A DNA stretch of 64,000 nucleotides from Escherichia coli (GTDB taxonomy: Bacteria > Pseudomonadota > Gammaproteobacteria > Enterobacterales > Enterobacteriaceae). A program made the position numbers and the translations under genes. Positions 3,908 through 23,925 of this stretch are shown piece by piece. The DNA is taken from NCBI GenBank assembly GCA_902500055.1, contig GCA_902500055.1_4131.1; one strand, written 5' to 3'. The notes beneath the pieces were generated by a model, which saw only the letters and a list, made by a program, of their open reading frames with translations, ran no database searches and was not told the origin of the DNA. Positions within the stretch are counted from its first letter, which is position 1. Every line of letters starts with the position of its first letter.

Positions 3908-3970
3908 GAGGGAGAACCATTTCCCCCTCTCTATGTAAAACATTATACTTGATTCTAAGTACTATGCAAG
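3908..3970 (-). promoter_or_regulatory. promoter plus 5' stem-loop cassette (PeSL-like)
   Basis: Minus strand: -35 TTGCAT (3964-3969), 16 nt, -10 TATAAT (3942-3947), then hairpin GGGAGAACCATTTCCCC. Confidence 0.55.
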
Positions 3971-3976
3971 TACTTT

Positions 3977-4309
3977 TTACATTTTAATACCTGGATTCAG
4001 GTAGCGGTGAGATCCATATTCTGGATCGGTTTCGGTCCAGTACTGTAAATCGATAGTACCTTTCGCGTTAATCTTGTCTACCAGCTTATTCATCTTAGCG
4101 TATACTACATCAGCATCGATGCGTTTAAAGCCAGTGGCTTTAGTGAAGTAGTAGTGATTTGCTTCACTATCATTCAGGATGTACCGAGAACCGTTTGCCG
4201 TTTGTGCGATAATGATTGAGTATTCTACGTTACGGTCGAGGCCGTCGATGAATACAGAGGAAACATTAGTACGGATGAAAGCTTTAACGATAGCGATTGA
4301 AGTAGTCAT
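3977..4309 (-). CDS. hypothetical protein
   Basis: ORF track 110 aa; RBS AGGAG upstream. Confidence 0.6.
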   Translation of the reverse strand: MTTSIAIVKAFIRTNVSSVFIDGLDRNVEYSIIIAQTANGSRYILNDSEANHYYFTKATGFKRIDADVVYAKMNKLVDKINAKGTIDLQYWTETDPEYGSHRYLNPGIKM

Positions 4310-4511
4310 TTTGAATCTCCTAACTTTGTGGGCCGTCGCACCATTGCCGCCCTACGAGATACATTATTGCAGTACTGATATACTTTGTCAATACTTTTTT
4401 TATTAATAGTTTTCACTCCACCAGCAGATAGTTACTCACCGTTATTAACTATATATTTTGGATACACTTATGCACCCTGTGGGCTAGTTTTTGTCTATGC
4501 GTATATAATAG

Positions 4512-4555
4512 CAAAGGGACTGACCGGAGTCAATCCCTTTTTTTATTCTTTTTTG
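4512..4555 (-). terminator. UNCG-tetraloop intrinsic terminator (bidirectional)
   Basis: Hairpin GGGACTGACCGGAGTCAATCCC flanked by A-run and T-run. Confidence 0.5.
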
Positions 4556-4756
4556 TTAGATGATTCTCCAATCATCAACGATCATGGTAAGATACCGAAC
4601 CAGTGATTCGAGTGATTCGTGTTCTCGATAGTCTGCCGCACCGCCAGCGGTACAAGTACAGCCGATTAAGCCGTTTTGCAATTCCTTAATCTGTACATCG
4701 ATAAGGTTGGCTTTAGCTTCTTTCAGTACTTCAACCAGGGCGATAGCGATAGACAT
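4556..4756 (-). CDS. hypothetical protein
   Basis: ORF track 66 aa. Confidence 0.55.
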   Translation of the reverse strand: MSIAIALVEVLKEAKANLIDVQIKELQNGLIGCTCTAGGAADYREHESLESLVRYLTMIVDDWRII

Positions 4757-4778
4757 AATGTTTTACTCCAAACTATTG

Positions 4779-4842
4779 GCGGGAGAACTATTCCCCCGCT
4801 CTATGTAAAACATTATACATTACTGGTTAGTACTGTCAAATA
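4779..4842 (-). promoter_or_regulatory. promoter plus 5' stem-loop cassette (PeSL-like)
   Basis: -35 TTGACA (4835-4840), 17 nt, -10 TATAAT (4812-4817), hairpin GGGAGAACTATTCCCCC. Confidence 0.55.
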
Positions 4843-4846
4843 GTTT

Positions 4847-5104
4847 TTATGAAATATCTTCGATGTAGTCGGCCCATTTCATTTTTTCAGTACTGTCAAG
4901 TGCAATCGGATTGCTAGGATCAAACCATTCACCATTCCCGCAATACATCCCCACGGCGACGGTTTTATATCCATCCTGGGCCGCACTCCACGACATTGCA
5001 CGATAGATATGGCCTTTAACTGGTTGCAGTACTGGTAACGTTTTATGGTCTTCTACGTAGGCCATAGCTTGAGGATTTACCCGATATTGTGTGAATTGAT
5101 CCAT
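4847..5104 (-). CDS. hypothetical protein
   Basis: ORF track 85 aa. Confidence 0.55.
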   Translation of the reverse strand: MDQFTQYRVNPQAMAYVEDHKTLPVLQPVKGHIYRAMSWSAAQDGYKTVAVGMYCGNGEWFDPSNPIALDSTEKMKWADYIEDIS

Positions 5105-5180
5105 TATGTTTCCCCTTGTAGTTAGTAAAGTTATTACATCAGTACTATCAAGCTATGTCAATAGTACTGAAATAAAACTT

Positions 5181-5405
5181 TTAGATTAGATTATTGAGGC
5201 CGTTGATGGTAGACTCGCTTTCTTCTTTCTCCCATTGGCGGTAGTACTTCCATGCTTCATGATATGTGGCGATTAGTTCATCTTTTTGATCCTGGTTACA
5301 TGCCAGTACTGAATCACGGTGAGCGGTGTTATAGATAGAATCGAATGATTTCTTCTCTTCTGCCAGGTTAGCTACTTCCCGCATCAGTTCATCAAAGTTA
5401 GCCAT
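5181..5405 (-). CDS. hypothetical protein
   Basis: ORF track 74 aa. Confidence 0.55.
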   Translation of the reverse strand: MANFDELMREVANLAEEKKSFDSIYNTAHRDSVLACNQDQKDELIATYHEAWKYYRQWEKEESESTINGLNNLI

Positions 5406-5421
5406 TTTATTACTCCTTTTA

Positions 5422-5482
5422 GTGGGGGAGGATATCTCCCCCTATGCAAAACATTATACTTTGTTTTAGTTATTATGCAAGT
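5422..5482 (-). promoter_or_regulatory. promoter plus 5' stem-loop cassette (PeSL-like)
   Basis: -35 TTGCAT (5475-5480), 16 nt, -10 TATAAT (5453-5458), hairpin GGGGGAGGATATCTCCCCC. Confidence 0.55.
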
Positions 5483-5736
5483 ACTTTTTTCATATAAACA
5501 TTAAATTCTACACCGCCGTAACCTTCCACGATGATATGTTTTGCGTTATCACGCTTGCACATAGTGAAACCGTTGTTGATATGTTCTGCATTTTCCAGGG
5601 ATACATCACCGATTGCAGCACATACGGCACTAATAACAGTATTCCGCAAAGTACTGGTATCATTAGCGGTCATAGTAGTTTGCAGTACTACGTTGTCGTA
5701 TACGTGTGCATTGATAGTGATTTCGATAGTGTTCAT
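5473..5736 (-). CDS. hypothetical protein
   Basis: ORF track; start trimmed to Met19 (MNTIEITI) with GGAG RBS. Confidence 0.55.
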   Translation of the reverse strand: MNTIEITINAHVYDNVVLQTTMTANDTSTLRNTVISAVCAAIGDVSLENAEHINNGFTMCKRDNAKHIIVEGYGGVEFNVYMKKVLA

Positions 5737-5754
5737 GGTGTATCTCCTGGACTT

Positions 5755-5818
5755 GAGGGGAAACCATTTCCCCCTCTCGATATAAAACATTATACGTTAA
5801 TCTAACTACAATGCAAGT
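5755..5818 (-). promoter_or_regulatory. promoter plus 5' stem-loop cassette (PeSL-like)
   Basis: -35 TTGCAT (5811-5816), 16 nt, -10 TATAAT (5789-5794), hairpin GGGGAAACCATTTCCCC. Confidence 0.55.
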
Positions 5819-5823
5819 ACTTT

Positions 5824-6015
5824 TTAAATTTTATTTCCGATATAGTCCGGCATGTTCTTTTCAGTCATACGCTTTGCTAATGTCTGCATATGGCTTATAG
5901 CGTTCAAGGTGTCTTCCTCCAGGGATGAATCAAGATAATCAGGATCATTCTTCACCTTGCAATGATTATGATAGCGTAGTACAGCCAGTACTTTTTTAAC
6001 TTCTTCAACTGTCAT
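5824..6015 (-). CDS. hypothetical protein
   Basis: ORF track 63 aa. Confidence 0.5.
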   Translation of the reverse strand: MTVEEVKKVLAVLRYHNHCKVKNDPDYLDSSLEEDTLNAISHMQTLAKRMTEKNMPDYIGNKI

Positions 6016-6284
6016 AATAAGTACCCCACTTCGTTAGCTTTCAGGTTAGTATCAATCATCAGTGGATTTTTGTAGTTCACAAAACGATTAGTTTTCTCGA
6101 TAGCGAATCCCATATAATCCAGCTTGCTTACAGTACATTCATTCTTAAAAACTTCTTTCGCTGTATCGATGGCTGATTGCATGGATAACCGCCCATCTAA
6201 ATTAATGTTTCCAAATGATCCACCAGCAGAAGTAGGATTACCGTTCATATCTTTAATGATCATAGTAGCGGAGTAGCTGGACAT
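6012..6284 (-). CDS. hypothetical protein
   Basis: ORF track 90 aa; ATGA overlap with downstream gene. Confidence 0.55.
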   Translation of the reverse strand: MSSYSATMIIKDMNGNPTSAGGSFGNINLDGRLSMQSAIDTAKEVFKNECTVSKLDYMGFAIEKTNRFVNYKNPLMIDTNLKANEVGYLL

Positions 6285-6372
6285 AATTTTGTTTCCTTTT
6301 ATTGGTGGGGGAGAACTATTCTCCCCTTGATGTAAACTATTATACAGTACTGATATACTTTGTCAAATACTT

Positions 6373-6777
6373 TTATTCGCCCATATAGATTAAGTTATCA
6401 TCGCCTACATAGGGATCGCAAACGTTGATTTCTTCGCAGTACTTCGTGAATACATCGCCATAGTGACCTAAACCACGATCCCAAAAACCAGTTCCGTGAC
6501 CTTCGCGGGTAAGGAACAGATCATGACCAGCTTGCTCATAACCGTAATCAATAAACATACCGCGAACTACTTCCAGATCATTACCGTGTTTCTCAATGAA
6601 GCGAGAACATGCAATCACCGCCGCTTGACGTGCTTCATCAGATAACTCATAATCTTCCAGGTAATCGCCGTTATCATTATGTACAGTACTGAATTGCATA
6701 GCTTCAATGTAACCAGCGACCATTGCAGCATGATTTTTATCGTTGGCGATATTCCGAGCAAGATTAGTAGTAGTCAT
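6373..6777 (-). CDS. hypothetical protein
   Basis: ORF track 134 aa. Confidence 0.6.
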   Translation of the reverse strand: MTTTNLARNIANDKNHAAMVAGYIEAMQFSTVHNDNGDYLEDYELSDEARQAAVIACSRFIEKHGNDLEVVRGMFIDYGYEQAGHDLFLTREGHGTGFWDRGLGHYGDVFTKYCEEINVCDPYVGDDNLIYMGE

Positions 6778-6861
6778 GATTTTATTCCTTTTAGTATCGG
6801 GGAGAACTATTCTCCCCTTGATGTAAACTATTATACAGTACTAAGATACTTTGTCAAATAC

Positions 6862-7083
6862 TTAATTACGTTTAAAATGATATGTACCTTTATCATCCTG
6901 TACGCCCCATACTGATTTACCATCAACACCAGTGAAGCCGGATTGTAATTCAATATGGAAACCATTATTATCAACTACAAAAACTTTTTTATTTTCATCC
7001 CGATAACATTGATATTCTGAATCAACATTAAAGGCCGCATCATTCAGACGATTGGAAGCGTAAATGCAAGTCATTGTAGTCAT
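6862..7083 (-). CDS. hypothetical protein
   Basis: ORF track; start trimmed to Met12. Confidence 0.5.
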   Translation of the reverse strand: MTTMTCIYASNRLNDAAFNVDSEYQCYRDENKKVFVVDNNGFHIELQSGFTGVDGKSVWGVQDDKGTYHFKRN

Positions 7084-7264
7084 GATTTTATTCCTTAATA
7101 TACCAGGGAGAACCATTTCCCCCTCTCGATATAAAACATTATACTTGATTCTAAGTACAATGCAAGTACTTTTTAAAAAATAGTTTTCAGTACTGAATAC
7201 TTATATAATAGATACACTTCCGCACCCTATGGGTCAGTGAGTTATCTCTCAATGGATATATAAT

Positions 7265-7300
7265 AGCAAAGGGACTGACCGGAGTCAATCCCTTTTTTAA
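7265..7300 (-). terminator. UNCG-tetraloop intrinsic terminator (bidirectional)
   Basis: Hairpin GGGACTGACCGGAGTCAATCCC 7271-7292, T-run on plus side. Confidence 0.5.
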
Positions 7301-7306
7301 TCTTTT

Positions 7307-7891
7307 TTATCGTGTTACCTTACTTGCTGCCACATCACGCTTTTTATAGTACTGATTCCAGATATTGCAGGTTAAACCGTAATCAAGTACTTTAATAAGG
7401 CCATTACGATCCTGGCCGATATTCTGTTTTCTGATATCTCTTATCGTTAGTGTTGATAATGTATCATCGACGTGTTGTAGTGCATCAGCAAAGCGGTGCT
7501 GGCGTTCGATTGCATTACGTTTAATATTGTACTTTAATTCATTGCACGCGTTTACGTGCTTCACACTACCTTTGCTTGCAGTACTCAACCGATCCATAAC
7601 GATAAACATATTATCAGGATCGCATAAATGCATATGCACCTTTGCAAAGTACTGTTTCAACTGAGGGCGGTCATAGTCTAAAAAATTCCATACCTTACAT
7701 TCAGTTTCATTTTGTTCTACACCCGCATCACAATTCGCGACCTTAATCACTAACCGATCATTTAAAGCGAAAACTATACGGGAAGAACCAGCACCGATGA
7801 TCTCCAGGCCAGCTAACCGACAAGCTGAAAGGATCTCTTTGTTGGTTTCCATTTCTGACAGTGTACGGATGAATTTAGTATAATTACGCAT
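7307..7891 (-). CDS. eukaryotic-like Ser/Thr protein kinase
   Basis: Gly-rich loop IGAGSSRIVF, VIKV lysine, catalytic loop IRDIRKQNIG, DFG-like IKVLDYG; start trimmed to Met20 with AAGGAGAA RBS. Confidence 0.7.
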   Translation of the reverse strand: MRNYTKFIRTLSEMETNKEILSACRLAGLEIIGAGSSRIVFALNDRLVIKVANCDAGVEQNETECKVWNFLDYDRPQLKQYFAKVHMHLCDPDNMFIVMDRLSTASKGSVKHVNACNELKYNIKRNAIERQHRFADALQHVDDTLSTLTIRDIRKQNIGQDRNGLIKVLDYGLTCNIWNQYYKKRDVAASKVTR

Positions 7892-7922
7892 TGCATGTTC
7901 TCCTTGAGTTAATGAAACTATA

Positions 7923-8165
7923 TTACAGTACTTTACTATCAATGGCAACTACTTTTTTAACATTAACGGCGTGGATCACTTCCTTCGTGTTTTTAGTACT
8001 GAATACTTTCGCCGCTCCTTGTTCGACCGTGATACGATAGCGACCATTAACATCAACCATATTAATAAAGTCCGGCGTGCTGAATGGTGTTGTTTTACAT
8101 TTGAGTACTGTTAACAGTTCCACCAGCGATGTAGTTTCTTTGATACGTTTTTCTAAAGTAATCAT
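7923..8165 (-). CDS. hypothetical protein
   Basis: ORF track; start trimmed to Met20; upstream 57 nt is a repeated promoter (TTGACA-17-TACTAT). Confidence 0.5.
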   Translation of the reverse strand: MITLEKRIKETTSLVELLTVLKCKTTPFSTPDFINMVDVNGRYRITVEQGAAKVFSTKNTKEVIHAVNVKKVVAIDSKVL

Positions 8166-8222
8166 TTTGTTTCCCCCGTGTTGGTATGTACATATAGTAC
8201 TAAAACATTTGAGTACTGTCAA

Positions 8223-8441
8223 TTAGATAATATTATATTTCTTTAAAGATAATGCGTCTTGGGTTGGCTGATACTCGATACCGTTCCCATTATTGACTTC
8301 AACTAATAAACCTTTGTCAATTAGTTTTTTAATAGTACGATACCCCTGTTGAAAATTGGTAAAATGTGAATCATTACGAAAGGTATAACCGTGCTTAACT
8401 GCTTCATCAATAGTTTTCTTTTCGATTTTAGATAATTTCAT
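8223..8441 (-). CDS. hypothetical protein
   Basis: ORF track; start trimmed to Met20; same repeated upstream cassette as 7923-8165. Confidence 0.5.
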   Translation of the reverse strand: MKLSKIEKKTIDEAVKHGYTFRNDSHFTNFQQGYRTIKKLIDKGLLVEVNNGNGIEYQPTQDALSLKKYNII

Positions 8442-8494
8442 TTTGTTTCTCCCGTGTTGGTATGTGTACATAATACTAAAACAATTGAGTACTG

Positions 8495-8749
8495 TCAACG
8501 TGATATTAGTTTTATTTTCTTATTATATTGTTGGTGTTCATATAGGTTTATTTTTCCTGTGTTCTCTATTACTATTCTGTTGTTAGTGTCCACATCGATT
8601 ACACGCAGTTTCCCGTTGCTTAACTTCCTTGGTAATAGGTTACCATTAATAAACTCATTAGCAAGCTGTACGGCCTTTGTGATGATTCTCTTCGGTGCTT
8701 TATAGTGTACCCGTAAGATGTTATCTTTATATAGTTGAACCTTAATCAT
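8495..8749 (-). CDS. hypothetical protein
   Basis: ORF track 84 aa. Confidence 0.5.
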   Translation of the reverse strand: MIKVQLYKDNILRVHYKAPKRIITKAVQLANEFINGNLLPRKLSNGKLRVIDVDTNNRIVIENTGKINLYEHQQYNKKIKLISR

Positions 8750-8761
8750 TTTGTTTGTCCT

Positions 8762-8789
8762 ATAAAAAAGGCGGGATCAGTTCCCGCCG
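8762..8789 (-). terminator. intrinsic terminator
   Basis: Minus strand hairpin GGCGGGAACTGATCCCGCC followed by T-run. Confidence 0.55.
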
Positions 8790-8810
8790 TGTTGTTAGTA
8801 CTGCAAGTTA

Positions 8811-9206
8811 TTAGATAACCTGGCGGCGTTTACTGTATACTGTTACACGATTACCCTTACGATCATGTCGGATCTCTTTCTGGTTGCGAATCAGTTCACT
8901 TGGACGCTTAAGGTTTGCCAGGTGATCCGCGTGAGTCCATGCGGTGTGGTTTACCTGTACTTTGATATCAGAATCAGCGATAAACTCATCTTGTGCGTCA
9001 AGTATTGCCGCCAGCATATCCGCTCGTTTTAGTTCTGCTGCTGTTAGTACTGGCTCAGGTGAATTCACAATATCAGAGATTTCTTTGAACTGTACGGCCC
9101 AGCGTTGACCTTTCGGTGCTGTCGTTCCCATGTCTTTAAATGCTGCTCCTTCCTCGCGTGCAACAATACGGGCAGCTTCACGGGTAGCGTAGAATTTAGT
9201 AATCAT
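8811..9206 (-). CDS. hypothetical protein (paralog of 20866-21132)
   Basis: Shared motifs YFATRE.AR, FKDMG, RWAV, RKGNRVTVY. Confidence 0.6.
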   Translation of the reverse strand: MITKFYATREAARIVAREEGAAFKDMGTTAPKGQRWAVQFKEISDIVNSPEPVLTAAELKRADMLAAILDAQDEFIADSDIKVQVNHTAWTHADHLANLKRPSELIRNQKEIRHDRKGNRVTVYSKRRQVI

Positions 9207-9301
9207 GGTATACATCCTATTAGTTGAGTTAGTACTACAAGTTAGAGTCTATTATAAAGTACTATCTGGGCAATGTCAAATAGTACTTTAAATGGATTCT
9301 A

Positions 9302-9625
9302 TTACATGTCTTTCTTACGTTTTACATCGTAGTAGCGAACTGTTATTTCTTTGTTAATCTCTTTTTCGATGCGGTGAATAACTTTTTCTTTCGGGTTGAA
9401 ACCTATAACGGTTTCTTTAATGATCTCCAAACCAGTGTATTCGCCTTGCGTACCGTAACCGTATGTAAAGGTTTCGTGTCCCAGGTCTTCCCAGCGGTCG
9501 CCAATTAACGCAGACACGTAGCAAGAGTGGTAAGTATTGCCGTTCCGATCAGTCCAGCGATTAACTTTAATGTCAAAGGAGGTTACAATTTTCAATTCCA
9601 CTTTCTGGGTAAGGATCATAGCCAT
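9302..9625 (-). CDS. hypothetical protein (paralog of 15258-15602)
   Basis: ORF track 107 aa; shared YGYG core and C-terminal VKRKKD. Confidence 0.6.
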   Translation of the reverse strand: MAMILTQKVELKIVTSFDIKVNRWTDRNGNTYHSCYVSALIGDRWEDLGHETFTYGYGTQGEYTGLEIIKETVIGFNPKEKVIHRIEKEINKEITVRYYDVKRKKDM

Positions 9626-9712
9626 TTTTATTTCTCTCTCTTTGTTAGGAGGGGAACCATTTCCCCGCCTTGATGTAAACTATTATACAGTACTAAGATA
9701 CTTTGTCAATAC

Positions 9713-9988
9713 TTAAGTATTGTAAATGTCGTGAATAGTGATAAAGTTTTTACGCCCGTAAACCTGTAAATCGGTATTAATGTAATGCTTATCAAGTACA
9801 TCCTCGACGCTTAAAGCCGTGTCGTGAATATCTTCGTAGAATTGAGGATCTACAATCTTGCTTAAGTCATCCGGCGTTAACTTATCGTTAAGCCATTGAA
9901 CCGCCTGGATATCTGCATCACGTTTCCATTGTTCCAGGTTAGTAGTCAGTACTTGTTCGATTTCGTTAGCTGTCAGTAGAATCCGCAT
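9713..9988 (-). CDS. hypothetical protein
   Basis: ORF track 91 aa; preceded by long duplicated leader. Confidence 0.55.
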   Translation of the reverse strand: MRILLTANEIEQVLTTNLEQWKRDADIQAVQWLNDKLTPDDLSKIVDPQFYEDIHDTALSVEDVLDKHYINTDLQVYGRKNFITIHDIYNT

Positions 9989-10002
9989 TTTAATGTTTCC
10001 TT

Positions 10003-10190
10003 ATCAGTGGTTGATGTAAGTATTATACTCGTTTACTTTCTATTGTCAAACTATTTTATCAGGGGAGTTTTTCGTATGTCTTACTCCTGGACTACTTAAC
10101 GGGGTTACTTGTTTCGTTCCCCGTCCTGATGTAAAACATTATACTTGATTCTAAGTACAATGCAAGTACTTTTTAAAAATAGTTTTCAGT
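10003..10190 (-). repeat. duplicated leader cassette with tandem promoters (copy 1 of 2)
   Basis: Near-identical to 20138-20320; contains TTGACA-16-TATAAT plus PeSL-type promoter and two hairpins. Confidence 0.6.
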
Positions 10191-10312
10191 ACTTGATAGT
10201 ACTAGCCACCAGCAAACAATAGATACATTTATGCACCCGGTGGGCTAATTTGTTTCTATGCGTATATAATAGCAAAGGGACTGACCGGAGTCAATCCCTT
10301 TTTCAATTATTT

Positions 10313-10462
10313 TTAAACTTCTTTCGGGTTGCGATAGGTGATAGCGTTCGGGTACATTTGTTTAATGTTATTCCATGCCTGGTTAACATTATAACCACTT
10401 GAGCGAATCAGTTGGTTACTACCGACACCTTGAAACACTACTTCAAATAAGAATTCTTTCAT
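10313..10462 (-). CDS. hypothetical small protein (49 aa, below ORF-track cutoff)
   Basis: Manual translation MKEFLFEVVFQG...; ATGA overlap with upstream gene stop. Confidence 0.4.
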   Translation of the reverse strand: MKEFLFEVVFQGVGSNQLIRSSGYNVNQAWNNIKQMYPNAITYRNPKEV

Positions 10463-10632
10463 GCTTTCACCTCGCTATCTGCTTTGCCTTTACGCCAGGC
10501 CGTTGCTAATTGTTCGCGTTGCCATAAGTCGAGTGATACGTAAAGTTTTGCATTATCACCCTTCGGATATTCGCCAGTAGTACCAATCCGATAAAACAGA
10601 TCTTTCAGTACTGTTAATTCTACCTGGACCAT
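10459..10632 (-). CDS. hypothetical small protein
   Basis: ORF track; start trimmed to Met35 (MVQVELTV) with AGAGGA RBS. Confidence 0.5.
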   Translation of the reverse strand: MVQVELTVLKDLFYRIGTTGEYPKGDNAKLYVSLDLWQREQLATAWRKGKADSEVKA

Positions 10633-10718
10633 TATACTTTCCTCTTTGTTAGGAGGGGAACTATTCCCCTTCCGATATAAAACATTATACACTTTATTCA
10701 GTACAGTGCAAGTACTTT

Positions 10719-10931: not shown

Positions 10932-11017
10932 TTTTCTTTCCTCTTAGTGGGGAGAATCATTTTCTCCCCTTCATGTAACTTATTATACAGTACTATAATC
11001 TATTGTCCAGTACTTTT

Positions 11018-11641: not shown

Positions 11642-11705
11642 GATTACTATCCTCAGTTAAGATATAAAACATTATACACTATCTTTCAGTACTGTCAATT
11701 ACTTT

Positions 11706-11963: not shown

Positions 11964-12293
11964 TATTTTAACCTCATTATAAAAATACTATAGTACTGTA
12001 ATGCGACAATAATATTACTTGTTCTTACTTTTTCCAATCCACATGATACCACATATTCATTACCATATGTGCGGAACGATACACCATGAAAATTTTTATA
12101 CACTTGCACTACTAATCATAACCTTTCGTCTAACCAACTGCATAGAATTATACTACTTTACGCAAATTGATCAAGTATTGATCAGATCATTTTTGATCAA
12201 TATTATACAGTTACATTTGTGCACCCTATGGGTTAGTGACGTTCTCGTCTTGATGTAAGTATTATGCCAGTACTGGATGATATTGTCAATAGA

Positions 12294-12740: not shown

Positions 12741-12832
12741 TTTGTTTCTCTCTCTTAGGTTAAGTTAACTACTGTTTATAAAACTTATTATACAGTACTA
12801 TCAAACGTTGTCAATAGTACTGGTAATATATT

Positions 12833-13045: not shown

Positions 13046-13141
13046 TTTGTTTTCTCTCTCTGTTAGTGGGGAGAAGTTTTTCTCCCCTTGATGTAAACTA
13101 TTATACAGTACTATAATCTATTGTCAAACTATTTTTTTATA

Positions 13142-13483: not shown

Positions 13484-13697
13484 GATTTGTTTCCTTATTA
13501 CCAGGGGAAACCGTTTCCCCTTTCGATGTAAAACATTATACGCTTATTGAGATAGTTTGCAAGTACTTTTTAAAAATAGTTTTCAGTACTCAATACTTAT
13601 ATAATAGATACACTTATGCACCCGGTGGGCTAGTGAGCTATCTCTCAATGAATATATAATAGCAAAATGGCTGACCGAAGTCAACCACTTTTTTCAT

Positions 13698-15602: not shown

Positions 15603-15690
15603 TTTAATTTCCTCTTAGTTGTCTTGATAAAATCTATTATGCCAGTACTATCAAACTATGTCAATAGTACTGTGATAATATTTTTACTTA
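15603..15690 (-). repeat. about 90 bp promoter-region direct repeat (second copy 15897-15990)
   Basis: TTGTTTCCTCTTAGTTGTCTTGATAAAATCTATTATGCCAGTACTATCAAACTATGTCAATAGTACTGTGATAATATTTTTACTTAC occurs twice. Confidence 0.7.
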
Positions 15691-15896: not shown

Positions 15897-15977
15897 TATT
15901 GTTTCCTCTTAGTTGTCTTGATAAAATCTATTATGCCAGTACTATCAAACTATGTCAATAGTACTGTGATAATATTT

Positions 15978-16669: not shown

Positions 16670-16700
16670 CACAAAAAAGCCCACTGTATAAGTGGGCTAA
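16670..16700 (-). terminator. intrinsic terminator
   Basis: Minus strand hairpin AGCCCACTTATACAGTGGGCT followed by TTTTTTGTG. Confidence 0.55.
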
Positions 16701-16719
16701 TGATTCAGTACTTTAATTG

Positions 16720-17202: not shown

Positions 17203-17401
17203 TTTATAAATCCTCAATTAAAGTTTAGTTTACGTTTATTAGTGTATCAAAGTTTTCTCGACGTGTCCAGTTTTTCGTTCGACTTACTGGCGGTCTACTT
17301 AGTGCTCCCCGTCTTGATGTAATACATTCTACGCTTTTCTGCGGTAATGTCAACTACTTTCTTAAAACTATTTTCAAAGTATCTCAGTACTACGATACTA
17401 C

Positions 17402-17431
17402 AAAAACAAAAAAAGCCCACCAGGTGGGCTA
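17402..17431 (-). terminator. intrinsic terminator
   Basis: Minus strand hairpin AGCCCACCTGGTGGGCT followed by TTTTTTTGTTTTTG. Confidence 0.6.
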
Positions 17432-17436
17432 TGTAC

Positions 17437-17667
17437 TTAATCAGTGAGTAAAATATTAAACACTTTACCATTTAACGTTATTGGTGCACTGCTACCAGGC
17501 TCAAGATCCGTTAATATACCTGCAATCGCTTTATCATTGGCGACCTTTCCAGTGTCCAACAGTACTACAGTACTGATAAGATTAACGCTCGTTTCAATAT
17601 CATAATGCACGGCGTTAAGTAGTTGTGTAGTACTGCTTTCGTTAAGTAAAACAATTCGCTTAGTCAT
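17437..17667 (-). CDS. hypothetical protein
   Basis: ORF track 76 aa. Confidence 0.5.
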   Translation of the reverse strand: MTKRIVLLNESSTTQLLNAVHYDIETSVNLISTVVLLDTGKVANDKAIAGILTDLEPGSSAPITLNGKVFNILLTD

Positions 17668-17688
17668 GATGTTACCCCGTAGTATCTA

Positions 17689-17988
17689 TCAACGGCAATT
17701 AATAACGCCGGTATGCGTTACTTTCTCAGTATCCATTACAGTGACCGAACCGCGTTTAGTACTGGCATCATAATAAATTGTCGTGCTACCGTTTTCGTCT
17801 TCTTCATGGAACGGGCCGTTTTTAAATGCTTCCGGCTGAATCTCCAGATCCTTTAATACAATCTCGCCAGTACTTTCATCGGTCATTGCAACAGTGCACT
17901 GAATGAATTTTTCACTACTTACATCTAATGACGCATTAACAGCGAAAGAGGAAACAGATAAAGCCAGGGCGATGATTGTAATTTTCAT
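17689..17988 (-). CDS. secreted protein (signal peptide)
   Basis: N-terminus MKITIIALALSVSSFAVNAS. Confidence 0.55.
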   Translation of the reverse strand: MKITIIALALSVSSFAVNASLDVSSEKFIQCTVAMTDESTGEIVLKDLEIQPEAFKNGPFHEEDENGSTTIYYDASTKRGSVTVMDTEKVTHTGVINCR

Positions 17989-18072
17989 TTGATTATCCTT
18001 AGTTACCAGGGGGAACCGCTCCCCCTTGCGATGTAAAATATTATACAGTACTAAAAACTATTATCAAGTACT

Positions 18073-18309
18073 TTATGATTTTTTATAAAACATTTCAGCA
18101 GTGATATTTTTACCCGTTGGCTGTACTTTATCCAGAATTTTTTGATGCCCTGGTCGTCCAAAGGAATATGATCCGTAAACAGTAAACCAGTAGTTGCCAT
18201 CAGTGTTTACATGTACAGCACAATAGGGTACGCCCCGCGATTCATCACTAGTAAAGTGTGCTACCGTTCCCGTTACATTCGAAGTCGTTGATTTGATTTG
18301 TTCAAGCAT
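18073..18309 (-). CDS. hypothetical protein
   Basis: ORF track 78 aa. Confidence 0.5.
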   Translation of the reverse strand: MLEQIKSTTSNVTGTVAHFTSDESRGVPYCAVHVNTDGNYWFTVYGSYSFGRPGHQKILDKVQPTGKNITAEMFYKKS

Positions 18310-18553
18310 TTTATTATTCCTTAGTTACCAGGGGGAACCGCTCCCCCTATGCAAAACATTATACGCGTTTAAAAACTAATTGCAAGTATTTTAATAAAAA
18401 GTATTTGAAAAATAGTTGTTGACAAGTGCATCCAGTACTGGCATAATTACTACATCAAGACGAAACAGTCACTAACCCACCGGGTGCCGAGATCCGTCTA
18501 TTAAATGATTCAGTACTGAAAAAGTAACGGGGAGTTATTATCTCCCCGCGTTG

Positions 18554-18775
18554 TTATTTTGTAAGGTATAAACAGAAGTCGCCTTTATTTGCTACGCCGC
18601 CAGTGTAACGCGATGAATAGTTAGAAACGTCCTGGACTTCTGCTATTACCAGGGTATCATCATTCAATTCGTCGCAGAAGCAAACGGCTGGATCTTGTAC
18701 GCCGATTTTGTCGGCATGTTCCCGCATAGATTTCACCAGTGCTTCCAGTTGGGAAAGAGTAGTGATATTAGCCAT
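18554..18775 (-). CDS. hypothetical protein
   Basis: ORF track; start trimmed to Met11. Confidence 0.5.
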   Translation of the reverse strand: MANITTLSQLEALVKSMREHADKIGVQDPAVCFCDELNDDTLVIAEVQDVSNYSSRYTGGVANKGDFCLYLTK

Positions 18776-18863
18776 TTTATTTTCCTCATTACCAGGGAGA
18801 ACCATTTCTCCCTTTGATGTAAACCATTATACAGTACTGAAAACTAATTGCAAGTACTTTTTT

Positions 18864-19124
18864 TCAGTATTGTTTATCGTCGTCTTCCTCGATGAATTGA
18901 CCGACGAAATGATCTACTTTCGCTTTGAGGCTTTTATAATCTTCTTCTACTTCCGTTAAACGTTCCTGGTAGTATTCCAGTGCCTCAAGATACGCCGCCT
19001 CAGCAGTTTTTGCACGCATAGCTAAATTCATTCCACGCGTTTCATCATAAAGCCAATAACCATCGGTGCACTGGCTAATAGATAATGACTTGCTTAGTGC
19101 TGTATAGCTAATTACTTTACTCAT
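18864..19124 (-). CDS. hypothetical protein
   Basis: ORF track 86 aa. Confidence 0.5.
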   Translation of the reverse strand: MSKVISYTALSKSLSISQCTDGYWLYDETRGMNLAMRAKTAEAAYLEALEYYQERLTEVEEDYKSLKAKVDHFVGQFIEEDDDKQY

Positions 19125-19181
19125 TAGATAACCCTCAGTAAAGGCGGGAACTATTACCCGCCATTATCTCAGTACTGAATA

Positions 19182-19421
19182 TTACATTCCAACCATTGCA
19201 GCACGGATCGCCGTAGTGCTATACTTGAATCCGTCCGGCGTTGTAGTAGTACCGTTGGCTTTTAATCTGCGGTACATACATTCCGCAGCAATATCTTTCG
19301 TTTTACTTTGTGCGATGCAATTTTGAGCAATCCGGTATAATGATTCATCGTTATTGATCCAAAGGCTTACATTCCAATGAGTTTTGTTTTTGTGCCCGTT
19401 GTAAGTTTTAGTACTAGCCAT
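19182..19421 (-). CDS. hypothetical protein (paralog of 21221-21460)
   Basis: Shared HKNKTHWNVSLWINNDE and TPDGFKYSTTAIRAAMVGM. Confidence 0.6.
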   Translation of the reverse strand: MASTKTYNGHKNKTHWNVSLWINNDESLYRIAQNCIAQSKTKDIAAECMYRRLKANGTTTTPDGFKYSTTAIRAAMVGM

Positions 19422-19511
19422 TTTTAAATCCTCGTTTGAGCGGGGAACCACTCCCCGCCTTGATGTAAAGTATTATACGCTTTTAAACTTAGTTTACAAG
19501 TACTTTTTAAA

Positions 19512-20120
19512 TTAATATTCGATTGATTCCACTACGCCATCAATAACATTGAATTGATATTCGTTACCCTCAATCAGTGCAGTAATGTTTTCAGTAGTGA
19601 ATTGATCCTCATATGCATTCTCTAAATCACGGTACAACTTACGAGATAATTCACGGATCGCATCAGTCAGTAAGTTTTCCAGATCCTCAGCCAATGCCGC
19701 CTGTTTTACAGTTAAATCAGTGTAGCGAGTATCAACGCAACCGCCTACCGTGTTTTCGTGTGCGTAGCGTGATTGGAAACGTTCTACACTCATTTCTAAA
19801 TCATCCTCGTTCAACAGGTGACGGATTGAACGATATTTCGTTAACGCCTTAACCTTGCGTAAAAACTTCTCAGCGTCAACGTGGTTAGTACTGATTGATG
19901 CACCGTCACCTTGCGACCAAAAACCACTGTATTGCAATTCAGCTTCATCTATGCCGTATTCTGGTAGTACTGTTTCTTTATAGTACTCGATAACGCCCTC
20001 AGCAAAGAAATTATCCTCACATGAACGCTCACGATCCCGAACCAGTTCAATAGCCGCCGTTTTTTGTTCTGCGTTCAGTTCAGAAAAAGCCATAACAAAA
20101 GTAGTAGTGATAGTTTTCAT
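19512..20120 (-). CDS. hypothetical acidic protein
   Basis: ORF track 202 aa; GAGGG RBS; preceded by duplicated leader. Confidence 0.6.
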   Translation of the reverse strand: MKTITTTFVMAFSELNAEQKTAAIELVRDRERSCEDNFFAEGVIEYYKETVLPEYGIDEAELQYSGFWSQGDGASISTNHVDAEKFLRKVKALTKYRSIRHLLNEDDLEMSVERFQSRYAHENTVGGCVDTRYTDLTVKQAALAEDLENLLTDAIRELSRKLYRDLENAYEDQFTTENITALIEGNEYQFNVIDGVVESIEY

Positions 20121-20137
20121 TTTGTAACCCTCATTCA

Positions 20138-20320
20138 GTAGTTGATGTAAGTATTATACGCTTTTACTTTCTATTGTCAAACTATTTTATCAGGGGAGTT
20201 TTTCGTGTGCCTTACTCCTGGGCTACTTAACGGGAAGTTACTTATTTCGTTCCCCGTCCTGATGTAAAACATTATACGCCTTTAAACATAGTTTACAAGT
20301 ACTTTTTAAAAATAGTTTTC
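20138..20320 (-). repeat. duplicated leader cassette with tandem promoters (copy 2 of 2)
   Basis: Near-identical to 10003-10190. Confidence 0.6.
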
Positions 20321-20547
20321 AGTACTGAATATTAAAAAAAAGTATTGACAGCATTATCAAGTACTGGCATAATATACCCCATGACAACAGCTAACCCACC
20401 GGGTGCACAATTGTAACTATACTAAACTAATTTTTCTATAGATACACTCCCGCACCCTATGGGCTACGGCTTATCTGCCAATGAATACATTATGCCAGTA
20501 CTGACAAAATAAGTCAATACCGGCAATTGTAAAGATTTGTAAACTGC

Positions 20548-20784
20548 TTATACTGCAATCGCGTCCAGGCTGTAATAATAATAAGTGCCGTATTGGTGTA
20601 CTTTATTACCTTTTATTTCAGTACTGAATGAATCCGAACGGTTTGCATATGATGTTAATTTAAAGTACTTTGATTTGCTGATACGTTGCCATACACCACA
20701 GATCCGCTGTAAGTAAGTAGTTTTATTCGTGGTAGTATCTTTTACGGTTTTAACTTCAGTCATATACATATTAGTCATTTTCAT
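20548..20784 (-). CDS. hypothetical protein
   Basis: ORF track 78 aa. Confidence 0.45.
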   Translation of the reverse strand: MKMTNMYMTEVKTVKDTTTNKTTYLQRICGVWQRISKSKYFKLTSYANRSDSFSTEIKGNKVHQYGTYYYYSLDAIAV

Positions 20785-20865
20785 TACTCCAGGTTATAGG
20801 CGGGAAGAGTTCCCGCTCTCGATGTAAAACATTATACGCTTTTATCAGTACGGTGCAAGTACTTT

Positions 20866-21132
20866 TTATTCAAGTACTGCAATCTTTTTAGTACGGTACA
20901 CGGTCACGCGGTTGCCCTTTCGGTCGAGCTTTATTTCTACCACTCGACGCGATACACTATCGGGACTTTTTAAGGCCGCTAACCAGTACTGTAATGATCT
21001 GGCCGTACTACGCTTTACAATGGCCCAACGTTCACCACTTGCCGATCCCGCTCCCATATCTTTAAACGTTGCCCCGTCCTGGCGTGCGGCGATCCGAGCT
21101 TGTTCACGCGTCGCAAAATACTTAATATTCAT
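20866..21132 (-). CDS. hypothetical protein (paralog of 8811-9206)
   Basis: Start trimmed to Met13; shared motifs with 8811-9206. Confidence 0.6.
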   Translation of the reverse strand: MNIKYFATREQARIAARQDGATFKDMGAGSASGERWAIVKRSTARSLQYWLAALKSPDSVSRRVVEIKLDRKGNRVTVYRTKKIAVLE

Positions 21133-21220
21133 GTTGTTGCCCTTATCGTTGGTGTATGAATAAAACACTATTATAAAGTACTATCCCCGTGCAATAGTAC
21201 TTTAAATAAATTCTATTCTA

Positions 21221-21460
21221 TTACATTCCAACCATAGCCGCACGGATCGCAGTAGTGCTATATTTGAATCCGTCCGGTGTTTTATCTTGTCCAGTCTGTT
21301 CTAAAAATAACATCATATGACGGGCCGCATCATTGCGATTAGTATTGGCGGCAATAAAGTCCAGGGCCAACCGATACAATCCCTCATCGTTATTAATCCA
21401 CAGGCTTACATTCCAATGAGTTTTGTTTTTGTGACCTAAGAACATTTTTGATTTAGCCAT
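21221..21460 (-). CDS. hypothetical protein (paralog of 19182-19421)
   Basis: Start trimmed to Met14; shared motifs. Confidence 0.6.
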   Translation of the reverse strand: MAKSKMFLGHKNKTHWNVSLWINNDEGLYRLALDFIAANTNRNDAARHMMLFLEQTGQDKTPDGFKYSTTAIRAAMVGM

Positions 21461-21552
21461 TTTTTTAATCCTCTTATATAGTGGGGAACTATTCCCCACC
21501 TGATGTAAAACATTATACGCTTTTATTCAGTACTGTCAAACTAATTTTTAAC

Positions 21553-21915
21553 TTATTCGTAAATTTTGCCACTGTCAGCCCATACCAGGAAACGAGGCAT
21601 ATTATCCCATGCATCTTGTTTTAAATTTAAACCGTGTAATACTTCTGTACTTTCCATTCCTGGTACTGGTTTACTATACACCGCGAAATTTTCGCCCATA
21701 TACTGATAAACCATCGTCAAATCACTGGCGATCATCTTATGGATCATCGCATCAAGCATCACGGTGGCGGCGTATTGTTCACGCTTAAGCGGCAGCATTT
21801 TAATCAGTTCGCGGTATGCGTCAATGTGAGTTTTAACCGTTGCCGCCGGAAGATCTTTCATATCGTCGCGGAAGTTAACCAGGTTAGCAATGATTTTAGT
21901 GATTTGAGTCGCCAT
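21553..21915 (-). CDS. hypothetical protein
   Basis: ORF track 120 aa. Confidence 0.55.
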   Translation of the reverse strand: MATQITKIIANLVNFRDDMKDLPAATVKTHIDAYRELIKMLPLKREQYAATVMLDAMIHKMIASDLTMVYQYMGENFAVYSKPVPGMESTEVLHGLNLKQDAWDNMPRFLVWADSGKIYE

Positions 21916-22027
21916 CGTTTTAATCTCTTAAAAGTGAGTAGGGAAGTGTTCCCGCTCTCGATGTAAAACATTATACGCTTTTTTCAGTACTGTGCAAGTA
22001 CTTTCTACAAATACTTTTAAAATAGTT

Positions 22028-22127
22028 TTCTTTCTATATAGGGGAACTATTATTCAGTACTGAATCAATCCAGGGGAACTATCTTTCTATATAGGAGTAC
22101 TATTATTCAGTACTGAATCAATCCACT
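22028..22127. repeat. tandem direct repeat, 2 x about 45 bp
   Basis: TCTTTCTATATAGG(G/A)G..ACTATTATTCAGTACTGAATCAATCCA occurs twice in tandem. Confidence 0.7.
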
Positions 22128-22277
22128 AAATCATCCCTATACCCCGTAAAACGGCCTCAGACGCATTCTAACGCATTAATACACCTAAGCTATACATTTG
22201 CACCATTCTAATCATTCCAGGGCTTTACGGGCCGTTTAAACGCGTTAAATTATTTTCAATTATTTTGTTTTTAGGTA

Positions 22278-22305
22278 TTGACTTGATCCTGAAAAAGCGT
22301 ATAAT
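22278..22305 (+). promoter_or_regulatory. near-consensus sigma70 promoter in non-coding hub
   Basis: TTGACT-16 nt-TATAAT. Confidence 0.5.
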
Positions 22306-22420
22306 TACTACATAGACGCGAGAAAGCGGAAACCCCAGGGGGTGCGGAATTACGCCCAAAATTCAAGATATAAAAAAAGGATACACTCCCGCACCCTAGC
22401 AGGCAAACGCACTTTCTCAG
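22306..22420 (+). ncRNA. candidate small RNA unit 1 (speculative)
   Basis: Downstream of promoter 22278-22305; no ORF; shares CGAGAAAG, GGGTGC and TTACGCCCAAAATTCA blocks with unit 2. Confidence 0.25.
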
Positions 22421-22493
22421 TACTGAAATATAGTACCATAGTCCGGCCCAGGATAGCAAGCAAATTAATTAAAATTTTTTTGCTTCCAGGGTA

Positions 22494-22521
22494 TTGCTTT
22501 ATTTTTTCAGTACTGTATAAT
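22494..22521 (+). promoter_or_regulatory. near-consensus sigma70 promoter with extended -10
   Basis: TTGCTT-16 nt-TG-TATAAT. Confidence 0.5.
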
Positions 22522-22600
22522 AGTTCCATCAAGTCGAGAAAGACTCAAGCCCACCGGGTGCATAGTTACGCCCAAAATTCAGTACTGAAAAAATTTTTAA
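22522..22600 (+). ncRNA. candidate small RNA unit 2 (speculative)
   Basis: Downstream of promoter 22494-22521; paralogous to unit 1; no ORF. Confidence 0.25.
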
Positions 22601-22618
22601 AAATATCCGTCCAGGCCG

Positions 22619-22647
22619 TTGACATTGCCCCCAGTTTATAAGATAAT
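22619..22647 (+). promoter_or_regulatory. near-consensus sigma70 promoter
   Basis: TTGACA-17 nt-GATAAT. Confidence 0.45.
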
Positions 22648-22740
22648 GATTCCAGATTCAGAAAAATCTAACTCCAGATACTGCGGGGAAACTATCCCCA
22701 CGCGGTAGGGGAACTATTGGAAAAAACAAAATAAAATTTT

Positions 22741-22875
22741 GATTTAGCCGTCTATACTTCCAGACGTGTAACCATCTAGCCGTTTAGCCGTCCAAACGTC
22801 TAGCCATCCAGCCATCCAGAAATCTAGCCGTTTAGCCGTCTAGATGGATAGCCATCTTTACTTCCAGACTTCTGG
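22741..22875. repeat. iteron-like short direct and inverted repeat cluster
   Basis: TAGCCGT/TAGCCAT heptamer about 8 times, CTAGCCGTTTAGCCGTC twice, palindrome CCATCTAG/CTAGATGG, ACTTCCAGAC twice. Confidence 0.65.
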
Positions 22876-23925
22876 AGGGCTAGACATATCTACGTCCAAA
22901 ATCCACCCAGGGTAACTACACCCAAAATCCGTCAGTACTATACCATAGATCTATCTTTTGAAAGGGAGTATTCAGTACTGCCATCATAGCCCTCACTATG
23001 TTACCCTAGGAGGATGAAGACCATCATGTAGTACTGAATACTGTTAGAGGGAATCCACCAGCTTGTGCTGGTGGCATAATGCATTAAATTAAAATCAGTA
23101 CTGACACCATTCTGTTAATATCAGTACTGTTTATATTACGAAAAAAGAGGTTATAAAAAGATGTACCACCCATAGGAGGAACTATCCTTTCAGTACTGTC
23201 TCACGACAGGAGGTAGAGTGAATGAATTGTTTGCGGCAACTCATCTCTCTATGTAGAACATTATACAGTACTGAATCATAATGTCAATAGCTTTCTTTCA
23301 TTATTCAGTACTGATATTCTTGAGAACTACCCGACTACAAACATCATTATATCCCACAAATCATAAACGTCCCAACGTAAATTTCAACTTTCGAAGATCC
23401 AACTTTTATTTCATAGGTACTCCAAAATTTTTAGGATCGAGATTTAGGATGGAGTACTAACCAACTTTTTGCTGGAGCCTCAAGGGGTAATGGAATTTTA
23501 CCCCGAAGGGTAAAAGGGTAATTGTAATTAAGGTGAAAGTAATAATTCAGTACTAATCATTGTGTGATTACTTTTGATTACATTTGATGTAATTTGCAAA
23601 ATGGAAAAGGAGCTTGGAAACTACAAAGTACGGCAGACTTCCTCTGCCTACTTAGTGGGATATCAGTACTGAATCATTCACACACATTTCCGTGCATTCT
23701 TGAGCAATCTTGTCTATACTAATCAGTACTGAATCATATATAATCATTCTGTGATTCTACGGTGCTCATATAAATGTTTATATATGATTACTTATGACTA
23801 CCTATGATTACGGGGTTTAGCCTGGGGAGAATCCTAGTGATCGCATTTGTCCAGGCTGAATTTTAACAATTCGCCTGTACATAAAGGTTGTTCACTAGGA
23901 GCTTCCCCTGTCTCTATGTGTTTAA

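Follow-up and report, generated by a model that had tools for sequence, protein, structure and literature searches.

The window analysed here is a stretch of 64,000 nucleotides filed under Escherichia coli (GenBank assembly GCA_902500055.1, contig GCA_902500055.1_4131.1), which, to judge from its alignments, is DNA of an Asteriusvirus-like jumbo coliphage. The element in question is the six-base palindrome AGTACT, together with its commonest and preferred form, the octamer CAGTACTG. Our main finding is that selection at the level of the DNA itself holds AGTACT at ~2–5 copies per kb in the RaK2-like jumbo phages of Enterobacterales. The explanation that we tentatively favour is that AGTACT may be the recognition site of a clade-specific protein, serving early promoters as an operator and marking phage DNA throughout the genome. 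We place AGTACT among the genomic signature words that are kept by selection; the observation is firm, while the mechanism is inferred from it with no more than moderate confidence.

Megablast of positions 18000–26000 returned the Asteriusvirus-type jumbo coliphages BF17, phAPEC6, UE-S1, 121Q and PBECO4 at 87–96% identity, and the window aligns with ~93–158 kb of 121Q in reverse orientation. Within it we counted 72 exact copies of CAGTACTG, against 1.03 ± 0.96 in dinucleotide-preserving shuffles (~70-fold), and 296 copies of AGTACT against an expected 21.3 ± 4.8 (13.7-fold). A first-pass annotation of this DNA had described an 8 bp palindrome as strongly enriched; the excess is real, but the octamer framing was too narrow, as the enriched unit is the hexamer. 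The octamer count matches a prediction based on 7-mers (70.1). AGTACT is preceded by C in 49% of cases and followed by G in 48%, each independently of the other; G is the rarest base at −1 (8%), the left flank follows the order C > A, T >> G, and the right flank is its mirror image. These preferences are additive, symmetric, and alike in open reading frames (ORFs) and non-coding DNA, and among the 903 AGTACT sites of 121Q, 194 have C..G flanks and three have G..C flanks. Dyad symmetry with symmetric flank preferences is what one would look for in the operator of a dimeric regulator, while AGTACT, being its own reverse complement, lacks the asymmetry and the strand or orientation bias of a polar signal. 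The window also holds eight copies of TTCAGTACTGAA (the wild-type counterpart of the altered word TTCAGTTCTGAA) and five of CAGTACTGTATAAT. GTAC as such is 3-fold enriched, CGTACG and GGTACC have no copies, and GCGC is absent against 67 expected.

The same holds for a whole genome. Comparing observed with expected 8-mer frequency genome-wide, the check proposed in the first-pass annotation, gives 194 copies of CAGTACTG in 121Q against 3.4 (57-fold), and AGTACT occurs 903 times against 118 (7.65-fold). Every 10-kb bin is occupied, with 11–65 copies per bin against 3.4 expected, and the early regions carry a 4–19 fold extra density. AGTACT is the sole strongly over-represented palindromic hexamer in 121Q, the next being GTGCAC at 2.35-fold. 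In the same genome 24 of the 64 palindromic hexamers, mostly those with at least four G or C, have no copies at all, and GCGC is absent against 291 expected; EcoRI and EcoRV sites stand at expectation. The proposal that the word is a restriction-avoidance signal therefore had the direction wrong, given that a site under avoidance is depleted, while AGTACT is enriched in a genome from which 24 other palindromes have been purged. Counts from relatives, an unrelated coliphage and the host were as follows.

RaK2 core genes (Alcyoneusvirus): 114 AGTACT against 16.6 expected
GAP32 early region (Mimasvirus): 217 against 13.4 expected
CBB early region (Mimasvirus): 226 against 13.3 expected
PA5oct (Pseudomonas relative), genome slice: 2 against 10 expected
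rV5 (unrelated coliphage), genome slice: 9 against 14.4 expected
E. coli K-12, 100-kb sample: 6 against 23.2 expected, 0.06 per kb, ~4-fold under-represented

The enrichment is thus found at 4.6–17-fold in Asteriusvirus, Alcyoneusvirus and Mimasvirus, and is missing from PA5oct and rV5. RaK2, GAP32 and CBB share the lack of GCGC and the palindrome pattern of 121Q, from which PA5oct and rV5 differ, GCGC being plentiful in PA5oct. In the E. coli K-12 sample GCGC occurs 7.2 times per kb, and AGTACT is ~40–80 times denser in the phage than in this host sample.

Much of the excess lies inside genes, where it can be measured against shuffles of synonymous codons that preserve both protein sequence and codon usage. 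By this measure the window genes hold 172 AGTACT against 48.8 ± 6.0 and 39 octamers against 5.6 ± 2.0; all three gene blocks of the window share the hexamer excess, including the plus-strand block (36 against 11.4 ± 3.1). In 121Q, 172 copies against 50.9 ± 5.2 are spread evenly along the 39 ORFs that reach 400 aa, which total 86 kb and serve mostly replication and structure; these long ORFs are similar to one another in density (1.2–2.9 per kb). For the 96 ORFs of at least 250 aa, the three reading frames of the word show 175, 33 and 80 copies against 56.8, 6.8 and 19 expected, a 3–5 fold excess in each. AGT and ACT are the leading serine and threonine codons (AGT makes up 34% of serine codons), yet 175 of the 347 Ser-Thr dipeptides of 121Q, or half, are written AGT-ACT where 57 are expected; the dipeptide itself is 1.32-fold enriched, and Ser-Thr and Val-Leu are commoner than the reversed orders. 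The excess over synonymous shuffles in all frames, taken with the shift in dipeptide usage, excludes an explanation by peptides, codons or codon pairs, the last being ruled out by the enrichment in all three frames. The 121Q annotation lists a serine tRNA with anticodon ACT, which would read AGT (25464–25555 of a 121Q segment outside the window), and DNA-level pressure may have shaped the phage's tRNA set.

In the diverged part of the alignment with 121Q (88% identity), AGTACT sites have stayed intact in 77% of cases and hexamers in general in 57%, a difference that includes some ascertainment bias; coding DNA taken alone gives 71% against 55%, and non-coding DNA 83% against 62%. Between orthologues of 121Q and RaK2 (68% amino-acid identity), 21 of 57 AGTACT sites in ORFs are at the same position, and at conserved Ser-Thr positions RaK2 has AGTACT in 15 of 19 cases where 121Q has it, as against 5 of 13 where 121Q does not. 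Some positional conservation combined with much turnover is the pattern expected if density outweighs single sites, and selection seems to act mostly on density and less on individual sites. Outside the early region the sites are also more evenly spaced than random (coefficient of variation 0.74 and 0.85 against 0.98–0.99), with a largest gap of ~2 kb against ~3 kb. One-mismatch variants are undepleted (the AGTATT/AATACT ratio is 1.07) and variants at the outer positions are ~2-fold enriched; a drive of the very-short-patch or deamination type is rejected, there being no depletion of one-step variants.

Our heuristic gene calls place 39 of the window's 72 octamers inside ORFs, and likewise 172 of its 296 hexamers. 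The enrichment had been presented as intergenic, and in density it is: octamers stand at 2.3 per kb in intergenic against 0.78 per kb in coding DNA, about 3-fold, and hexamers at 8.6 per kb in non-coding against 3.45 per kb in coding DNA. As most copies nonetheless lie in ORFs, the label is misleading. Nor is the octamer in nearly every intergenic region as claimed: it is found in 14 of the 37 between 3940 and 23930, whereas AGTACT is in 34 of them. The 2-kb non-coding hub at 21916–23925, said to hold more than 15 octamers, has 14. Confining the enrichment to 3940–23760 captured 40 of the 72 octamers, but the whole window is enriched except for its first 3186 positions. The main elements of this distribution are the following.

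3187–63987, no strand: field of 296 AGTACT sites (72 as CAGTACTG), present in each 2-kb bin from 2 kb on, at 4–19 per bin
1–3186, no strand: AGTACT-free stretch of tightly packed ~70-aa genes, the sole part of the window exempt from the enrichment
21916–23925, no strand: non-coding hub, 20 AGTACT (14 as CAGTACTG); no coding sequence is annotated in the homologous 135195–137160 of 121Q
22055 and 22108: octamers in a duplicated ATTATTCAGTACTGAATCAATCC block of the hub
23266, 23664 and 23724: three CAGTACTGAATCAT copies in the hub
26025–26684, minus strand: 219-aa ORF with four CAGTACTG (26072, 26144, 26208, 26312) and no promoter-like context
31022–31029, plus strand: TTCAGTACTGAA deep within an RCC1-like paralogue (30535–31644), a long ORF of the opposite coding strand

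Superimposed on this field is a precise geometry at early promoters. The region contains 104 promoter-like sites against 65.6 ± 8.4 in shuffles, with twelve perfect 12/12 sigma-70 matches on the minus strand, and AGTACT takes up three positions in such promoters: one base upstream of the −10 (AGTACT-g-TATAAT or AGTACT-gg-CATAAT), just before the −35 or across its 5' edge (AGTACT-a-TTGACA, AGTAC-TTGCAA), and overlapping the 3' edge of the −35 (TTGAC-AGTACT). Relative to the −10 hexamer, the copies start at −29 and −7, a layout conserved across three genera. Paired copies are 20–24 bp apart, joined in some promoters by a third that lies another 23 bp upstream, and the spacing between AGTACT copies in early regions peaks at 20, 22 and 23 bp. 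Fixed positions over the core promoter elements, in helical phase, are as expected of an operator. GAP32 and CBB promoters show the same two-site architecture, with AGTACT-T-TATAAT at the homologous position; a scan of IMG/VR with the exact two-site promoter pattern returned only GAP32 and CBB, and no new relatives. The word TGCAAGTACTTT recurs 12 times in the window. Representative promoters are listed here.

6339–6366, minus strand: perfect sigma-70 promoter TTGACA-N16-TATAAT in which CAGTACTG makes up the 8 bp of spacer next to the −10; the 5' hairpin GGGGAGAATAGTTCTCCCC comes after the promoter
6830–6857, 9682–9709, 13100–13127 and 23260–23287: promoters of the same layout
12787–12821, minus strand: two-site promoter with AGTACT one base before TTGACA (12816–12821) and before TATAAT (12794–12799), 22 bp centre to centre
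9258/9282, 10989/11009, 14129/14149, 15644/15666, 15938/15960, 18047/18067 and 18833/18853: equivalent AGTACT pairs, 20–24 bp apart
15636–15671, minus strand: CATAAT-class promoter with the TG of AGTACTG in the TGn register (AGTACTGG-CATAAT)
12261–12289 (minus), 15930–15958 (minus), 18419–18447 (plus), 20345–20373 (plus) and 20489–20517 (minus): other CATAAT-class members
21512–21539, minus strand: promoter with the octamer overlapping the −35 (TTGA-CAGTACTG); likewise 11671–11698, 4812–4839 and 8470–8498
13535–13590, minus strand: weak −35 class (AGTACT-TGCAA ... gcgTATAATgtttt) with an extra AGTACT 23 bp upstream (13585–13590), giving up to three sites in steps of ~20–23 bp

A symmetric word, its phased placement at promoters, a 5–10 fold excess throughout the genome that is kept up despite the constraints of protein coding, restriction to one clade and rarity in the host sample are together most simply explained by a single symmetric DNA-recognising protein. 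The reader would be a clade-specific, twofold-symmetric (dimeric) protein. At early sigma-70 promoters it would find sites at or over the −35 and one base before the −10, about two helical turns apart, and by occupying them cooperatively it would control access of RNA polymerase, either excluding or repositioning it. The simplest direction, and the one we favour, would be early shut-off; alternatively, the protein could activate the weak −35 class (AGTACT-TGCAA) from a position centred near −38. Over the rest of the genome, evenly spread copies would let phage DNA be addressed apart from a host chromosome poor in the word, a sequence-based label that could serve coating, recruitment or protection.

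Several points weigh against such a protein. Pfam matches to 10 ORFs flanking the hub, to the 119 ORFs called in the window and to 10 selected 121Q proteins include no helix-turn-helix, ribbon-helix-helix or AbrB-type domain, nor any other DNA-binding domain that might belong to the reader; besides the window domains listed further below, the matches are to sigma-factor regions and to C5 and Dam-type methyltransferases. A sharp site of 6–8 bp is short for a typical dimeric repressor and resembles the site of an enzyme, whether methyltransferase or nuclease. Per-site conservation is moderate, 63% of the 121Q sites in ORFs being unshared with RaK2, and many intergenic copies ride on repeated promoter cassettes and so are not independent. 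Two stretches of 121Q, of 4.1 and 7.6 kb, are wholly free of AGTACT, which argues against a strict need for the word every 2 kb. The first, a gap at 155.5–159.6 kb, is the counterpart of positions 1–3186 of the window, and the second is at 161.8–169.4 kb; both consist of closely packed ~70-aa genes, and they may have been recently acquired, or may be a module exempt from the selecting force. GTAC is abundant in the 7.6-kb stretch. The data have limits of their own, in that the coding and non-coding split rests on our heuristic gene calls and the host figure on 100 kb of E. coli K-12.

A broader and more speculative possibility, which we hold less likely, is that RaK2-like jumbo phages, having no T4-style base hypermodification, tell their own DNA from that of the host purely by word content. 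On this view they have rid themselves of GCGC and of two dozen palindromic hexamers frequent in the host, words that would be possible targets of phage or host nucleases, and have loaded a hexamer that the host underuses as a positive address label. A phage protein would then read this label, so that the factors for transcription control, coating or replication are steered to no DNA but the phage's.

The strongest rival to a protein-read site, though we consider it unlikely, is an epigenetic mark resembling that of HIP1. A phage DNA methyltransferase or another base-modifying enzyme would target AGTACT, and a dense symmetric mark would time early promoters by the difference between fully modified parental and newly replicated DNA, or would discriminate strand or self. 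Sharp 6-bp palindromes are typical of methyltransferase and restriction-enzyme sites, and HIP1, a hyper-abundant cyanobacterial palindrome, has been tied to two methyltransferases. The clade carries orphan methyltransferases of the C5-cytosine (PF00145) and Dam (PF05869) types, whose specificity cannot be read from sequence, and the only enzymes reported to cut the DNA of RaK2 are insensitive to methylation (PMC3622015). That a ScaI-type site is enriched while 24 palindromes are purged also implies that the site is somehow safe. On the other hand, no N4-cytosine or other methyltransferase with an inferred AGTACT specificity was found among the proteins scanned, and a Dam-type enzyme most simply targets GATC. 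The C5 enzyme of RaK2 is reported to act at CpG (PMC3622015), the deamination products AGTATT and AATACT are present at normal levels by the ratio given above, and methylation alone leaves the abundance of the word unexplained.

It is improbable that AGTACT is a replication or recombination signal, by which we mean a word at which some phage DNA-transaction enzyme has to act on either strand at intervals of 1–2 kb. Start sites for primase, sites nicked for clamp loading and hotspots of recombination-dependent replication would be examples. Palindromy does provide equal density on both strands, core and late regions are more even than random with largest gaps of ~2 kb, the long ORFs are alike in density, and the phages that have the trait form a clade equipped with a T4-like replisome of its own. 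Such a signal, however, explains neither the precise −35/−10 placement at early promoters nor the extra density of the early regions, and it is at odds with the site-free stretches of 4.1 and 7.6 kb; moreover, known primases use trinucleotide sites and need no enrichment.

We regard as highly improbable the proposal that the octamer is purely a promoter element, a part of the early promoter consensus that supplies an extended −10 TG, with all other copies being decayed or cryptic promoters. About 24 promoters in the window do have AGTACT adjoining the −10 (ATACAGTACT in 16 copies and TATGCCAGTACT in eight), and the region holds the twelve perfect consensus promoters. Classified by context, however, ~13 of the 72 octamers are in full −35/−10 promoters, 11 are beside a −10-like hexamer alone, and 48 (33 coding, 15 non-coding) are promoter-free, where ~1 is expected in total; among hexamers, 224 of 296 lack a promoter-like context. 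Masking promoters thus leaves a ~50-fold excess, which bears out the first-pass suggestion that copies lacking a −10 point to an additional role, and the excess persists in all frames of the late and structural ORFs of at least 400 aa. Some copies do lie in promoter spacers, as had been suggested; the accompanying idea that the TG forms an extended −10 is right for the CATAAT class and one AATAAT promoter, which are in the TGn register, and fails for the TATAAT class and across genera. In CAGTACTG-TATAAT the TG abuts the hexamer at −14/−13, one base away from the canonical −15/−14, and none of the 12 perfect TTGACA/TATAAT promoters has a canonical TG. Seven AGTACT-bearing promoters have one in all, those of the CATAAT class plus the AATAAT promoter at 4391–4363, and hairpin-embedded TTGACT/TATTAT promoters have one without an adjoining AGTACT. 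In GAP32 and CBB the TG is missing from the homologous position and the conserved element is AGTACT. A promoter element is therefore refuted as a complete account by promoter masking, and survives only partially, for the CATAAT subclass.

A neutral process is just as doubtful. On this account mutational or repair bias, codon or codon-pair preference, or the copying and pasting of cassettes would have raised the count with no sequence-specific function. Intergenic copies do lie in repeated cassettes, similar to the PeSL elements that recombine in T4-like phages (PMC4122927), and the standing of AGT and ACT among the codons is in its favour. The synonymous shuffles and shifted dipeptide usage described above count against it, as do the undepleted one-step precursors, which are unlike the outcome of very-short-patch-type repair, and conservation of AGTACT sites above background. 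The trait is also stable in three genera on different hosts, and lacking in PA5oct and rV5.

Least credible of all is that the sites are a decoy for, or hijack, a host protein whose site has an AGTACT core, notably the nucleoid-occlusion factor SlmA (GTGAGTACTCAC), thereby blocking division or titrating the factor. AGTACT is central in the SlmA site, whose half-site needs G1, T2, a purine at 3, A4 and G5 (PMC3020112), and the phages with the trait all infect Enterobacterales, their Pseudomonas relative lacking it. The phage, though, prefers C where SlmA requires a purine, G being the rarest base there, and the coliphage rV5 has no enrichment. There are no full SlmA sites in the window or in 121Q, where SlmA-type half-site flanks are found at 20 of 903 copies against 55 expected (2.8-fold depleted). 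With G..C flanks at three of the 903 copies as well, the flanks exclude SlmA. Sites of the LexA, TrpR and Mom types were set aside for unfitting half-site arrangement or flanks, and an RNA hairpin from the palindrome was rejected on inspection, as UUCAGUACUGAA could give only a 4-bp stem.

With regard to gene layout, positions 1–28.3 kb carry small early-type genes on the minus strand, a block broken by the non-coding hub at 21.9–23.9 kb; 28.4–43.5 kb is a plus-strand array of RCC1-like paralogues, and from 43.5 to 64 kb the genes are again on the minus strand. The array (28399–43468) consists of about a dozen tandem paralogues of 240–400 aa with near-identical intergenic spacers between them; their 121Q annotation is RCC1-like 'regulator of chromosome condensation', and they are the source of GGTGGTGG-type words among the enriched k-mers. 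Among the 119 called ORFs, Pfam identified a ParE-like toxin domain, a DksA/TraR zinc finger, a GNAT acetyltransferase, an HNH nuclease and two DUF7249 proteins, the remainder being unannotatable; Rfam and tRNA scans of the window gave no matches. The hub contains an iteron-like array of ~12 copies of TAGCCGTC (22745–22843). The records of GAP32 and CBB start in the region that matches the hub, as does the terminal repeat of CBB, and the sign of the GC skew changes near 24 kb; the boundaries of the CBB terminal repeat do not coincide with AGTACT.

The early promoters have further repeated features. Four hairpins with 12-bp stems enclose a promoter (AAAGGGATTGACTCCGGTCAGTCCCTTT-GCTATTAT) on the minus strand at 4505–4540, 7260–7295, 10266–10301 and 13656–13691, composite terminator/promoter units like the PeSL cassettes of T4-like phages, and similar TTGACT...GGTCAG units are at 47.4, 52.4, 54.2, 55.0 and 58.2 kb. 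A conserved leader, acatcaa-GGGGAGAAnnnnTTCTCCCC, begins within ~12 nt after early promoters (6300–6338, 6795–6829, 13060–13099 and many others, minus strand) and would give the transcript a 5'-terminal hairpin. Ten short units combine a promoter, ~28 nt and a conserved (A/G)CCCAYNGGGTGC, several of them with AGTACT no more than ~40 nt downstream.

4438–4515, 7188–7265, 10199–10276, 12187–12264, 13584–13661, 18444–18521, 20363–20440, 20418–20495, 22302–22379 and 22518–22595: the ten (A/G)CCCAYNGGGTGC units

A structured RNA in these units was rejected, as the conserved hairpin is only 3–4 bp with no covariation and no Rfam match. In the unit at 18419–18548 (plus strand) the promoter is followed by a terminator ~100 nt away, and it could be a small RNA.

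In the full text of the accessible papers on RaK2, CBB, phAPEC6, Sharanji, Asteriusvirus and jumbo-phage comparative genomics we found no mention of a CAGTACTG or AGTACT motif. Some 900 retained copies of one restriction-type palindrome, in a genome purged of nearly all GC-containing palindromes and biased in its Ser-Thr usage, point to a selective force not described for phages. They offer a handle on how large phages with unmodified DNA separate self from host and time their early promoters. The defined site could be used as bait in a hunt for the reader protein, and the abundance of AGTACT as a simple metagenome signature for the clade. Host restriction of the ScaI type should kill these phages unless AGTACT is protected.

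AGTACT can be set beside several known systems. It is identical to the type II restriction site of ScaI/Eco255I (AGT^ACT); phages are expected to avoid restriction sites, while this clade enriches one. Chi, DNA uptake sequences and KOPS are short words kept dense so that a protein machine recognises 'own' DNA, but they are asymmetric and biased in strand or orientation, where a palindrome carries no polarity. The phased operator arrays of phage repressors likewise place multiple short sites over the −35 and −10 at helical-turn spacing. The stoperators of Cluster A mycobacteriophages also have extra copies scattered genome-wide, ORFs included; these are asymmetric words of 13–14 bp that follow the direction of transcription, come to a few dozen in each genome and function in lysogeny, in contrast to a 6–8 bp palindrome with ~900 copies per genome in a virulent phage. 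The AGTACTGG-CATAAT subclass is like extended −10 (TGn) promoters, having TG at −15/−14 beside a weakened −10; it is set apart from them by the larger TATAAT subclass with its TG one base too close, by the T in place of G in GAP32 and CBB, and by the location of most AGTACT outside promoters. The PeSL cassettes of T4-like phages are similar in being repeated intergenic units of a near-perfect sigma-70 early promoter and a stem-loop that flank small variable ORFs in plastic regions, a resemblance that may explain the spread of promoter-borne copies; such a cassette covers only the intergenic copies, and a word search of the paper found neither GTAC nor the term palindrome (PMC4122927). The closest analogue is HIP1 (GCGATCGC) of cyanobacteria, a short hyper-abundant palindrome in and between ORFs with no gene-level explanation, which is conserved above neutral expectation and whose function has been inferred only at the chromosome level and is unresolved (PMC5861425). 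AGTACT shares two properties of such a word: it is many-fold over-represented genome-wide, and its presence and conservation, in ORFs as well as between them, go beyond what codon usage would give. It differs in that HIP1 belongs to a cellular genome, whereas AGTACT is a hexamer (an octamer with its preferred flanks) of a virulent phage clade, enriched 8–17-fold, or ~57–70-fold as the octamer. A cognate methyltransferase was not identified among the proteins scanned, and AGTACT has, in addition, its precise placement at early promoters.

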